Shown in pieces: positions 58,119 to 62,590 of a stretch of DNA of 64,000 bases (within the stretch, counting starts at the first letter, position 1; each line of letters opens with the position of its first letter). The stretch is from Convolutriloba macropyga (Eukaryota): positions 18,228,001 through 18,292,000 of the forward strand of contig NC_134472.1 in the NCBI RefSeq assembly GCF_964194025.1. The letters run 5' to 3'. The notes beneath the pieces are model-generated. The model was not told the origin of the DNA and did no database searches. It saw only the letters and a list, made by a program, of their open reading frames with translations. A program made the translations under genes and the position numbers.

Positions 58119-58507
58119 TGTTCTAAAGATAAAAGGAATAGATTTTAAAATTTTATTATAAAAACAGTTGGGTTGTACAATATAAATAAGGATTTAAGCA
58201 AGATTGATATCATATGTTGAAACTTGTTAACAAACAAAACAACTGCTGGTAATTTCAACGAGAACAACTGGTTAACAACTGTTGAACAAATGCTTGGTGA
58301 TAGCTATAAAACTGGGTGATTGAAGAACGGAATATCAACTACTAACTGAACTGAACTGAAACTGAACTGTGCTGTACTGACTGATATAAAAATTTGCTTC
58401 CTATATATAGTCAGCAATGTGGGAATTAATTTCCCATTTAAAAAGTGGGATAAAACATCCCTTTTTAGTTTTGGGACAAAAGTTCCCATTTTCCCATTTT
58501 CAGTACA
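58119..58507 (-). repeat. Putative 3' LTR
   Basis: Begins TGTACTGAAA at 58507 and ends ...TTTAGAACA at 58119 (alternative end ...TTGTACA at 58174). It contains TATATATAGGAAGCAAA (58409), a TCAGT Inr 31 nt downstream (A at 58378), and AATAAA at 58157-58152. The 5' LTR is not in the window, so boundaries are unconfirmed. Confidence 0.65.
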
Positions 58508-58623
58508 TCCAACCGGCGATTTAGCGGGTTTTGTTGTAACTGGCTGGATATACAAGGTTAGATAGAAATTTATATATAAAAATTTACAAACATGTTTAAA
58601 AACAAAATTTAGAATAAGAGTTT

Positions 58624-58986
58624 TTAGTTTTGGTTTCCTTCGAGTTGATTTATTTTGTTTTGCAAAAATTTAATTCGATTCATCAGATTTGCGTTCTTCT
58701 TCTTTTCTCGTAGGAAGTTTTGCTCCAGTCCTAGTGTGTATGTGTCTCTCTCGTTGTTGAGGTCTGCTGTTATAAACTGGTAAGGGACTGTTAAGTTCTG
58801 TTTGTCGAGTGGTATGTTCTTTAGGCGATATGTCTTTAATTTCGAGTTATAAGATTGAATCTTATAAATGTTTCCCTCGGGTAATACTCTGTATTGCAGG
58901 CCCCAGTCAAAATTTGGGTGTCCTCTGAATTGCCTATTTCTTGTTCTTTCTTCGTTGAATTTCTGCCTTTCTAATCTTTGCTCATG
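58624..58986 (-). CDS. 120-codon open frame lacking an upstream ATG (HEQRLERQKFNEERTRNRQFRGHPNFDWGLQYRVLPEGN...NANLMNRIKFLQNKINQLEGNQN*), with a C-terminal leucine-zipper-like heptad
   Basis: Hand-translated and stop-free for 360 nt in AT-rich DNA. It is absent from the ORF track because it lacks a start. It begins directly after ...CCTTAG, which is either a stop codon or a possible acceptor. Confidence 0.5.
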   Translation of the reverse strand, partial: HEQRLERQKFNEERTRNRQFRGHPNFDWGLQYRVLPEGNIYKIQSYNSKLKTYRLKNIPLDKQNLTVPYQFITADLNNERDTYTLGLEQNFLREKKKNANLMNRIKFLQNKINQLEGNQN

Positions 58987-59246
58987 CTAAGGATCCGTGG
59001 TTCTATAGGGCAGATTGTAGCTGTGGGCTTCAAGTGTGTAGCTGTCGGAGCAATCGTTACTTCTGTTAAATCCAATTTTTTTTCTCCTCTCCCGGTATTG
59101 ATAATTTGCATACTCTTCCCTGGTATAGTTTGTACTGGTTGTCGCTCTGGTGGTTCTTGTTGCTGGCCCATTAGTTCCTCGAAGGTATCGGGGAGAATGA
59201 AGTCGTCTATATCCGGCATGTCGTCGTCACCTTCGTATCCTAAATT
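58971..59246 (-). CDS. Accessory protein exon 2 (NLGYEGDDDMPDIDDFILPDTFEELMGQQQEPPERQ...)
   Basis: Acceptor gtttctatttttag|AAT at 59247/59246 lies 9 codons upstream of, and in frame with, the listed 82-aa ORF. Its phase is compatible with the donor at 61966. Confidence 0.55.
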   Translation of the reverse strand, partial: NLGYEGDDDMPDIDDFILPDTFEELMGQQQEPPERQPVQTIPGKSMQIINTGRGEKKLDLTEVTIAPTATHLKPTATICPIEPRILSMSKD

Positions 59247-60646
59247 CTAAAAATAGAAACAACATACGTGTGTATTATGGATAAGATAGTTATTTTTTAT
59301 ATATATATATATATATATAACAAACTAATTATTTGTGTTTTTATTTATAGTCGTATATATCTTTTAAAGTCATTATTGCTTTTAGACAGGAGAAATTGGA
59401 TTATCTCCATTTTCTTCTATTGCAGCATTGTTTTCATGTCTCTCATTTCTAATTGCACTATATAGTGGGTGCGGAATATGTGGATATAAATTAAAATGTG
59501 TTTCTTTCATTTCAGTTACTAAATGCTCAGCATCATCTGGCTGTTTTTCATTGGTTGGCTCATTTTTAAAGATAGAAGTCATAATAGAAGTGAACAGAAT
59601 ATTATAAGTGGCAAATAAGATGATTTTTCCAAAATTAACAGAAGCTCCAGTTATTTTATGTATTTGTAGGGCTTTTACAATTGTTACAACAATTTGAATA
59701 ATAAATTTCAAGAAAAGAAAAGCGGCAAAATAAATTCCACATTGCTCTAAGATAAATTGTGTATAACCGAACATTTCTATATAGCGGTTATCAAAGAAAT
59801 TAGGAGAAATAAAAGAGTCTAAGTAGACTGTTCTCATTGGATAGTTAAGATAAGTTCTATCCTCACTTTTAAAATTATCTTGAGAAACAACAAGTTCTTT
59901 AGAGAAAGTTTGTATAGCATCTTTCATTTCGTTATTGAATTTAATTCCGCGCCAAAATTTCTTTAATTCTTGATCAGTAAATAAATATATTTCATCACTA
60001 TCCTGGAATTTGTATTTAGTTAATCTTTGTGGAGCAATATTAGGCTCAAAAACAGAGGGTCCTTTGACTCTAGTTATACCCGGTGTTAATTCAACCCAGG
60101 AGTTATCATCTTCAATATCTAATTGAAATAAATTATCGTGTTTATCTACACATGATCGTTCTTCAGCGCTAGTGTATGTCTTTCTAGTAATTGGATCAAC
60201 GAAATGTATTTTATTTTGATACATTATTGGAATTCTATTATAACATTTCTCCATAATTTGTAAGGGTGAGAAATACTGTGGGCAATGATATAGCCATGCA
60301 ACATTATCATTAGTCTCTAAGAACATTGAGCGATTATTTGTTAGTAAGAATCCAGCCATACGTGGATTACTATGCGAATAGACTAAATTTGTTCTCTTTA
60401 TAGCACGTTCTAACTCACAATCGGTTTTTATCATTTGTAAATCTAAAAGCTGTAGTCTTCTTATATTAGTATATTCGTAATAGTCAAATTTCGTTCCCAT
60501 ATGGGCTTCATAATTTATTCCTGAGTGCAGATCAATATTTGGCTCTCCATTTGTATATGAAGTTCGTTTTACGAGCAATTTGCCTCTTGTGCTATTTACA
60601 TAAGTATTTTTTACAACATTTGGAATTGGTTTTTTTGCCTTTCCTG

Positions 60647-61237
60647 TATCCATATCGAATCCTCCTTCATAATGTATATATAATGAGCTATAAGGAGTAG
60701 GATAAACTATTTTGTTTGAGTCGCAAATTGACTGTGGATTATTATAAATCTGAAAAATGAAAGTATTTCGTGGCCCTTTAAATGGTTGCGCACGTCTAAT
60801 AACAGCTTCTGTTGATTCAGGTTCAGTTTCATATTCTCTTACTATATAATATTTTCTATCTATTTGTATCATTTTTACTGGAGCTGTGTGTAATTCTTCT
60901 ATTATACAATTTCTTCTATTAATTCTTCTATTATACAATTTCTTCTATTAATTCTTCTATTATACAATACCTATCCATATCGAATCCTCCTTCATAATGT
61001 ATATATAATGAGCTATAAGGAGTAGGATAAACTATTTTGTTTGAGTCGCAAATTGACTGTGGATTATTATAAATCTGAAAAATGAAAGTATTTCGTGGCC
61101 CTTTAAATGGTTGCGCACGTCTAATAACAGCTTCTGTTGATTCAGGTTCAGTTTCATATTCTCTTACTATATAATATTTTCTATCTATTTGTATCATTTT
61201 TACTGGAGCTGTGTGTAATTCTTCTATTATACAATTT
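60647..61237. repeat. 266-bp tandem duplication (60647-60912 / 60972-61237) with a 59-bp templated filler
   Basis: The two copies read identical at offset 325. The junction is built from 29-bp units aattcttctattatacaatttcttctatt starting at 60892, 60921 and 60950 (last one partial). Confidence 0.95.
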
Positions 61238-61965
61238 TCTCTATTTTCCCATGTATATGCATAAGGATCAGTTGATCCACTGTCACAGCCATTTTTGTTT
61301 AGGCTACAAGGCAGAGGAATATTATAGTGGTTATTTACCGTTCCATCTTCTAAATTTACTAGTAATTTAATATCTTGCATATATGTCTCGTAAGTATCGT
61401 GGTAGATCCATCCTGTTTCTGTGCACTCATTACTGTATTTATCACTAACGTCGCCCTTATTTATAACTGTTTGTTTCTTTACATTTTTTGTAAATGGAAC
61501 TTTGTTAGTGTTAATAGTCGCGGAGCCTGTTTTCTTAGCTTCGAGACATTGCTCGGCTGTTAATTTAATATCTGAGCTAATAGTTGCCTGTGTAGCGGAT
61601 AAACCACTATCGTCAAAAGTATCACAATACCACTTTAGGCGTTGATGTGTAGCTTTACACATAGTTGCTTCTAATTTAGTCTTATAATTGCGCTGCATAA
61701 TAGTAGCAGTTGCCTCACTTACTTTTATTTTCTCAGTATCGATATCGCATGGAGCTATTTTGTTTAATGAGTACATTTTATTAGAATCTATTTTAGAACA
61801 ATCAAAGTGTCCTACTTTTACTTTCTTTAGAGTATTTTTAAATTCGGAGTCTGCGTTGGCTCCATTTATTGAAAGTAGTGCGGAAATTATTAGAGGTACA
61901 ATTACAGGTACTCTCATATTGAAAGGGTAGAAGTTTGAACAAAGAAGAATTATAAATTTACTTAC

Positions 61966-62049
61966 TTCAATTATTTCGTCCAACACTTCTGGATCGGGCT
62001 CGGGGAACTGAAAGCTGGTTAGCTCAACTGTTTCTTGTTCTGAATTCAT
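61966..62049 (-). CDS. Accessory protein exon 1 / env leader (MNSEQETVELTSFQFPEPDPEVLDEIIE)
   Basis: 28 codons followed by a consensus donor GAA|GTAAGT, phase 0. Confidence 0.6.
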
Positions 62050-62051
62050 TT

Positions 62052-62270
62052 TTAATATTCAATTATGTTAGTGAAGGTATGAATGCTTGAAGGGATTTTA
62101 AATTCAAAGTTAAATTTTAAGGCAGCGAATAGACTTGATGTGTCTTTCACTAGAAAAGTCTCTGTGGTTAAATCGGAAAAGAGGAAAGTAGCGTAAATAA
62201 CGCTTAAGTCGTTAGCAGGAAAGAAAGTGGATTTCAATTTGGCTAGTTTGCCGTTGATCCTAATAAGCAT
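62052..62270 (-). CDS. 72-aa ORF filling the leader of the predicted internal transcript (unknown product)
   Basis: Its ATG lies ~36 nt after the predicted Inr (62306). Its TAA lies 2 nt before the ATG at 62049 (TAAAAATG). No recognisable motif. Confidence 0.4.
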   Translation of the reverse strand: MLIRINGKLAKLKSTFFPANDLSVIYATFLFSDLTTETFLVKDTSSLFAALKFNFEFKIPSSIHTFTNIIEY

Positions 62271-62299
62271 TTAATCGTTGACAGAGAGAGATGAAGAAG

Positions 62300-62590
62300 G
62301 AAGAATGATTGTTGGCGTTTTTGCTTCCCTATTTATAGTGTAGAAAATGGGCTGTTTCATCTCACTTTAAGAAATATGTCTCAAATATTCCCATTTTTAG
62401 TGACGGTTTCTTTCTTTTTATTGGCTGGGAAGATATTCCCATTTTTTAAACCAGTTTGTGCAATTTCATTGGTTTTCATAGTTTGGGAATATTTATCCCA
62501 TTTTTCTATTCAAGTTTTCATTGTTTATTGGTTTTTAGAATTTGGAGTTTCTATTCTCCTTTTATTTATAAATGCTAGAATTTGATTGGC
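62300..62590 (-). promoter_or_regulatory. Internal (env/accessory) promoter of the LTR element
   Basis: TATAAATAGGGAAGCAAA starts at 62337, with an Inr-like TCATTC whose A (62306) is 31 nt downstream. There are four CCAAT boxes (62420, 62468, 62527, 62585) and TGGGA-N6/7-TCCCA palindromes at 62426 and 62484. Confidence 0.7.

Follow-up and report, generated by a model that had tools for sequence, protein, structure and literature searches.

The window analysed here is a stretch of 64,000 nucleotides (G000:C5:18228001-18292000) from the animal Convolutriloba macropyga, whose genome measures 1.18 Gb. On its minus strand lies a long terminal repeat (LTR) element that extends 6.7 kb beyond the window end and is ordered gag, pol, a 590-bp spacer, env, a post-env open reading frame (ORF4) and the 3′ LTR. 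The pol gene has the protease–reverse transcriptase (RT)–RNase H–integrase order of Ty3/gypsy elements (Metaviridae), with the protease matching only below the cut-off, and family A, as we call the family of the window element, also has LTRs, a primer-binding site after the 5′ LTR and a short target duplication. Scoring of 76 candidates gave at least 40 spacer copies of family A in the genome. To judge from sequence, the spacer likely holds a second promoter carrying a family-specific palindrome that is common to the LTR.

The LTR promoter and a probable second promoter

The LTR and the pol-env spacer contain the following features:

58072..58507, minus strand: 3′ LTR of 436 bp (TGTACT...AGTATA); the 5′ copy is outside the window
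58376..58409, minus strand: LTR core promoter, with TATA at 58409-58402 and a predicted initiator (Inr) A at 58378
58420..58496, minus strand: U3 array of GGGA-N7-TCCC palindromes at 58420-58436, 58446-58462 and 58472-58488, with a half site at 58492-58496
62304..62337, minus strand: internal core promoter, with TATA at 62337-62330 and a predicted Inr A at 62306
62344..62504, minus strand: internal palindromes with A-rich flanks, namely degenerate 62348-62364, half site 62389-62393, N6 62426-62441 and N7 62484-62500
62420..62589, minus strand: four CCAAT boxes (62420-24, 62468-72, 62527-31, 62585-89) that alternate with the palindromes
62642..64000, minus strand: pol 3′ end, comprising the integrase core and a GPY/F-type C terminus

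An earlier note on this DNA had placed LTR palindromes at 58420, 58446 and 58472 and spacer sites at 62348 (degenerate), 62389 (half), 62426 (N6) and 62484 (N7), with an Inr A 31 nt from the TATA box in both promoters (58378 and 62306) and the TATA-proximal palindromes 11 nt from the TATA box in LTR and spacer alike. All of these positions are correct. The palindromes also exceed chance: the LTR holds three against a chance mean of 0.0 and the spacer two against 0.004, and in each case 0 of 2000 dinucleotide shuffles reach the count. The middle LTR site reads TGGGA-N7-TCCCT. The 26-bp period reported for the array is exact in the window copy, but it is a subfamily trait that is not conserved; by eye, other natural copies have four palindromes with periods of about 26/27/29, or of 20. 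The array itself is retained in subfamilies and in 73-76% relatives, and the promoter layout of the spacer in a 76% relative. CCAAT boxes, which we take to be NF-Y sites, are absent from the U3 of the window element and would provide basal activity of the internal promoter.

Conservation across copies, which the earlier note had proposed as a check, was scored on 39 of 43 spacer loci, a shared variant being one common to at least three copies. Such variants fall in 5 of 88 motif columns as against 47 of 282 columns of non-coding spacer (p=0.005, a guide only, because the copies are related), and in just 1 of the 51 columns of the palindromes and their flanks. The spacer between GGGA and TCCC is 6-7 in length in 219 of 220 site counts, taken over redundant loci. 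The palindrome feature is real and selected.

It is very probable, on sequence grounds, that the pol-env spacer is a Pol II promoter with a predicted start. From the TATA box to the env ATG, family A has one ATG where 2.8 are expected; in family C the corresponding 1430 nt contain four where 16.8 are expected, and three of those four open small ORFs. Families B, C and E were found through searches with ORF4 and with PF24664, and in all of them CCAAT, TATA and Inr-like sites precede env. The layout was not seen by eye at two further env loci (828- and 754-aa frames), and none of 20 loci picked by their primer sites yielded a new family with both promoters readable. Family E has in its spacer (L084 3480-3650) what looks like a compact promoter, CCAAT-CCAAT-TGACGTCA-TATA-Inr, to which its LTR shows no evident match. 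Anatomy, conservation and sister families give good support to the idea of an internal promoter, with a predicted start, that has a motif in common with the LTR.

Two reading frames lie directly downstream of the internal promoter:

62052..62270, minus strand: ORF3, 72 codons, opened by the first ATG past the internal Inr, with its stop 2 nt ahead of the env ATG
59382..62049, minus strand: env, a class III fusion glycoprotein (PF24664), its frame split by a duplication (60647-60920 / 60972-61245)

The env frame matches PF24664 with E values of 4.6e-11 and 1.4e-22; this class III protein is not of the baculovirus-F type of Drosophila errantiviruses. ORF3 is full length in 29 of the 37 rows that have its ATG, and its shared variants (in at least three copies) are 16 synonymous to 3 non-synonymous, with shifted frames showing the opposite. 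By this sequence measure ORF3 is under purifying selection; it is an unannotated gene with no Pfam match. Family C has three paralogous ORFs of 103-109 codons in a stop-start chain ahead of env (L074 2346-3295) and two more past ORF4 (L074 7390-8137), the one tested having no Pfam match. Kinship of ORF3 with these small ORFs was not accepted, the best E value being 0.042.

Left unspliced, the internal transcript would serve for both ORF3 and Env, through leaky scanning or re-initiation. It is very improbable that there is instead no internal start, with env, ORF3 and ORF4 all made by splicing of LTR transcripts and the motifs of the spacer serving as an enhancer. The common route to env is splicing from the LTR, which Tor3a uses according to the text available from PMC4402516; here donor-like sites lie at 69984 and 68886, and a site resembling an acceptor, at 62158-62150, is retained in 32 of 40 rows. 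That acceptor, however, is inside ORF3 and would remove its ATG, and a pyrimidine-rich acceptor was not found between the TATA box and the ORF3 ATG. The TATA-Inr spacing and ATG-poor leaders, moreover, recur in four families.

Promoter likeness within and between families

The sequence surrounding the motifs had been described as non-aligning, which is wrong: over its proximal 80 nt the spacer promoter gives a colinear alignment with U3 at a score of 45. This score is reached by 0 of 1000 plain shuffles, by 8 of 1000 in which the cores and TATA are fixed, and by 225 of 1000 in which the A-rich flanks and the post-TATA GGAAGCAAA are fixed as well. Since U3 and spacer align beyond the cores, the shared unit is a longer module, for which common descent is possible. 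The related claim, insofar as it has motifs alone being retained, is too strong.

The same alignment is what one would expect of a relic, a U3 that reverse transcription had placed in the spacer of each lineage, leaving a working promoter and no selected common regulator. Its colinearity runs past the cores and includes bases after the TATA box, and family B is equally colinear. The palindrome cores and flanks are, on the other hand, the most conserved columns of the spacer, and their internal spacing is held at 6-7. The distal palindromes, because they alternate with CCAAT boxes absent from U3, are not a plain copy of it. We regard a relic as quite improbable.

Family B is the sister of family A, with an RT identity of 87%. 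Its U3 carries CCRTCC/GGACGG and CGG-N8-CCG, and both recur upstream of its internal TATA. The top U3 5-mer of family A, TCCCA, occurs five times in the internal promoter of A and is absent from that of B, whereas the top U3 5-mer of family B, CGGAC, occurs three times in the internal promoter of B and is absent from that of A. Read from these sequences, the motif was exchanged in both promoters jointly in families A and B. Ungapped identity between U3 and internal promoter over the 45 nt preceding TATA amounts to 19 positions in A, 24 in a relative of A and 20-29 in B, compared with 15-19 across A and B; colinearity anchored on the TATA box thus holds inside each of these families but not from one to the other.

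ORF4 as the candidate binder

ORF4 is represented by three features:

58624..59246, minus strand: ORF4 main exon, encoding an acidic N terminus, linker, helix, SH3/Tudor-like barrel and coiled coil
59247..59260, minus strand: predicted phase-0 splice acceptor of ORF4, its TTTTAG retained in 29 of 29 rows
61966..62049, minus strand: 28-codon 5′ exon, common to env and, as predicted, ORF4, with the donor GT at 61965

Of 12 copies read, 5 have an ORF4 frame that stays open for 207 codons from the splice acceptor; in the window copy this frame is split by a frameshift near 58,980. The donor, placed after 28 codons of env, matches the phase of ORF4; like the CCAAT boxes and ORF3, this pair of splice sites had escaped the earlier note. 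Because a phase-0 donor and acceptor pair is present in families A, B and C, and because the first Met of the exon comes no earlier than residue 83 in family B and is lacking altogether in family C, ORF4 is likely spliced from the env 5′ exon, with a predicted product of 235 aa. The predicted joint is absent from four contig-type runs of unrecorded type, which have cover in 30 of 30 bins and are uninformative on expression. Shared variants in the ORF4 core are 69 synonymous to 5 non-synonymous (30 of 30 loci), so by its codons the frame is under strong purifying selection, although identity between A and B is only 36% where RT reaches 87%.

The first 30 residues of the ORF4 exon include 10 D/E and no K/R, and the DDF-L-P pattern of this acidic stretch recurs in family B. 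A model built from 19 rows (pLDDT 85) consists of a helix, a small β-barrel and a long helix; with only 6 rows the model had been poor, at a pLDDT of 53.5. Resemblance of the barrel to SH3/Tudor/KOW domains reaches only Z 4.4-5.0 with an rmsd of 2.4-3. As a homodimer, ORF4 is modeled as a parallel coiled coil with a score of 0.39 against 0.00 for the best control, the runs agreeing in at least 80% of contacts and the partner reaching a pLDDT of at least 54. In microbes, 21 of 30 solved pairs come up to the mark used for homodimers, as do 0 of 23 single chains; in eukaryotes the figures are 17 of 29 and 0 of 30, respectively.

Searches with ORF4 returned only weak coiled-coil matches from Pfam, nothing under E 1 from PDB sequences, no Atlas match at or above 0.8 and, in a wide VIA search, coiled coils only. 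Relatives number 16 close ones by word-index search and 35 proteins by profile search, in other genomes too. Close copies of another four types of ORF4, and of one type of env, were not found in the source genome. The post-env ORFs of family E and of C10 match the ORF4 profile with E values of 3e-3 and 2.5e-4, which, in so small a set, are a lead. Elsewhere in the genome, a tandem array of ~1-kb units has a decayed ORF4 fragment in each (G000:C3:41121577-41172005).

Gal4-type factors carry two heads on a coiled coil and bind a dyad with a fixed spacer. With two modeled heads on a coiled coil, ORF4 would suit a fixed-spacer dyad as well, and its predicted dimer is the most likely, if putative, binder of both promoters. 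In the circuit that we propose, the 28-codon env 5′ exon would be joined to the post-env exon to give ORF4, as the conserved phase-0 sites suggest; the coiled-coil dimer would set its two small β-barrels on the palindrome dyad; and the acidic N terminus would activate the internal promoter first, in a feedback. ORF4 would then activate the LTR array and so turn on gag-pol, by analogy with foamy-virus Tas. We rate the chance that ORF4 is a Tas-like activator of both promoters at slightly under even. The earlier note's suggestion of the element's accessory protein as the putative dimeric binder gains support from the motif switch, the acidic N terminus and the predicted dimer.

A broader proposal in three parts belongs with the circuit, and we rate it, as a whole, at somewhat under even. 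ORF4 may, going by the model, be an activator of a new type, with an acidic tail, an SH3-like putative DNA-binding head and a coiled-coil dimer. Its binding sites, co-evolving at both promoters, might form a private switch for each family. A new Tas-like self-regulation could have arisen in an env-bearing Ty3/gypsy clade, independently of retroviruses.

Several observations weigh against the circuit. In family C, ORF4 is clear (E about 1e-27) and an internal promoter is present, and sharing between its U3 and internal promoter was not found (12/45, p=0.52, with no enriched word); in family E, none was seen by eye. A blind shared-k-mer matrix is weak, giving p=0.035 only for A/A at k=8. Two of the three CGGAC matches of family B stem from one 68-bp duplication, one family B copy holds a single such match, and the motif switch is known from two independent families only. 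Copying of U3 would produce equal colinearity of the promoters. As for the protein, Foldseek found no match to the barrel at E<=0.001 in PDB or BFVD, only generic SH3/Tudor/KOW, and those domains are mostly not known as sequence-specific binders of double-stranded DNA. The success of the modeled coiled coil may reflect resemblance to solved coiled coils. Lastly, [ED][ED]GE[ILV], described as an ARS2-binding motif in the available text of PMC9402713, is carried by 8 of 48 env-frame homologues, always inside the first 40 residues, and occurs 0 times in the other 27,592 residues.

Some of these observations would suit a host dimeric factor that co-regulates the internal promoter and the LTR and differs between A and B, with another role for ORF4. 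The promoter evidence is neutral on the binder, and the retention of ORF4 by family C without a shared motif favors such a factor. So does the TATA-proximal GGGA...TCCC of both the A and the B LTRs, with different spacers, and so do the palindromes of Sireviruses in the LTR and upstream of env, which are discussed as host-factor sites in the portion of PMC2829016 that we cite. The named candidate, CSL/Su(H), fits poorly, and no other host factor was identified, though no scan for the dyad was made in the genome beyond the elements. We consider a host binder unlikely, though a serious contender.

CSL/Su(H) had been named in the earlier note on the strength of TGTGGGAA, which is indeed present at 58418. 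Paired CSL sites have the consensus CGTGGGAA and lie 15-17 bp apart, as given in the accessible text of PMC8494340; their likeness to the present sites is that both are head-to-head and contain GGGAA. Neither that consensus nor that spacing is found here, where half sites are 5 bp apart and the GGGA-TCCC spacer is 6-7. Among 86 distinct half-sites, YGTGGGAA is matched by 1 and RTGGGAA by 19, the base following GGGA is A in 41, T in 33, C in 8 and G in 4, and family B lacks the CSL word. We reject CSL/Su(H) as the binder.

ORF4 might alternatively regulate through chromatin or RNA, being recruited indirectly as a Tudor-like reader, an ARS2/cap-complex partner or an anti-silencing factor, while the palindromes bind another factor or act as RNA. 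The nearest folds of its barrel are indeed Tudor, chromo-barrel, PWWP and KOW, the match to Tudor/Royal-family readers being that of an SH3-like barrel at Z 4.4-5.0 only. The ARS2-type motif, moreover, lies in the part of the env frame that splicing, as predicted, would join to ORF4: its carriers are the predicted first exons of families B and C and of P0090, P0092 and P0093. As a sequence feature, the motif supports a nuclear product of the env 5′ exon and allows a role at the RNA level. It is, however, absent from the env 5′ exon of family A, and the palindromes lie at a fixed distance upstream of both TATA boxes, as DNA sites would, and outside the 5′ end of the predicted subgenomic RNA. 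Both the general route and the particular roles named here appear improbable to us.

Setting of the copy, precedents and meaning

The window copy is broken, with an in-frame stop in gag, the internal duplication in env and the frameshift in ORF4. Its 5′ and 3′ LTRs are 99.8% identical. At its 5′ end, 72 nt of internal sequence precede the LTR, and the copy is flanked by a host duplication of 174 bp (window 58508-58579 and 57899-58072; L021 6435-6677), unlike the 4-bp target duplication of three sister copies; a family E copy has a duplication of 208 bp. Aberrant one-ended integration is known from retroviruses, and the odd ends of the window copy look like either such an event or an assembly artefact. 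LTRs in families A, B and C finish in TA, not CA. The gag and pol frames overlap at a TTTAAAC slippery-type site (L021 4298-4312), a sequence that suggests −1 frameshifting. A Macro domain (PF01661, E 4.7e-5) is found in the pol of family C (L075 4794-5100); family B pol has, by eye, a stretch resembling it, and family A pol gave no Macro match. In other env families, RING-finger accessory ORFs lie downstream of env (L082 7652-8074). A plus-strand host exon at 55913-56068 matches RBPMS/Mec-8, and the element, 2 kb downstream and antisense to it, probably sits in an intron of this RBPMS/Mec-8-like host gene.

HTLV Tax, with its repeated LTR elements, is one comparison for the LTR array. Foamy viruses offer a closer one: their acidic, dimeric activator Tas, of 209-308 aa, is made from an internal promoter and acts at both promoters (PMC3798896, in the text available). 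Like them, the present element would have two promoters with common elements at both (response elements in foamy virus), and it has an accessory gene 3′ of env; the counterpart of Tas would be the predicted spliced ORF4 of 235 aa, with its acidic N terminus and modeled dimer. Foamy viruses, however, belong to the Retroviridae, and their internal promoter is in the 3′ end of env, with Env not its product, whereas the promoter-like region described here lies between pol and env of a Ty3/gypsy element. The acidic part of ORF4 is N-terminal and its DNA binding putative, and no likeness to Tas in sequence or fold was found (no significant match in Pfam, PDB or BFVD).

Internal env promoters in Ty3/gypsy elements have a precedent in Oikopleura Tor3b and Tor4b, whose env mRNA starts were mapped to an internal promoter by 5′ RACE, in the pol-env spacer for Tor4b (PMC4402516); the internal env promoter predicted here from sequence is therefore less unusual than first supposed. 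The text available for Tor names neither a motif shared with the LTR nor an accessory activator. Sireviruses supply the other half, having element-specific palindromes clustered ahead of the LTR TATA and upstream of the env-like gene, much as families A and B, though not C, have palindromes in U3 and again ahead of env. The Sirevirus core is CGG-CCG, in 8-32 copies, to be compared with CGG-N8-CCG in family B and GGGA-N7-TCCC in family A. Sireviruses differ in being plant Ty1/copia elements with no element-encoded binder named in the available part of PMC2829016, and the window element is not Ty1/copia, since its integrase follows RNase H. Family A resembles in its genes the gB-type 'ancient errantiviruses' of Chary and Hayashi, which are multi-copy animal gag-pol-env Ty3/gypsy elements with a class III-like env (PMC13524379, main text). 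That main text has 0 matches for promoter, splice, accessory or subgenomic, and neither an internal promoter nor the accessory genes ORF3 and predicted spliced ORF4 are described in it.

Internal env promoters (Tor) and palindromes shared by LTR and pre-env region (Sirevirus) are thus already known, and each ingredient has a precedent. We found no publication that describes their combination in Ty3/gypsy together with a new candidate activator, and in the portion of CC-licensed literature covered, no self-encoded activator or such accessory gene was found for Metaviridae or LTR retrotransposons. It is a hallmark of complex retroviruses that they encode an activator of their own which acts on two promoters. 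Should ORF4 bind the palindromes, an equal logic would have arisen in Metaviridae around a protein of unrelated fold, and it would explain how sister families in one genome come under separate on/off control. Families A and B provide two natural proteins and two natural promoter pairs for a reciprocal test. Even with a host binder, the element would be a clear instance, in animals, of co-evolution between an internal env promoter and the LTR.

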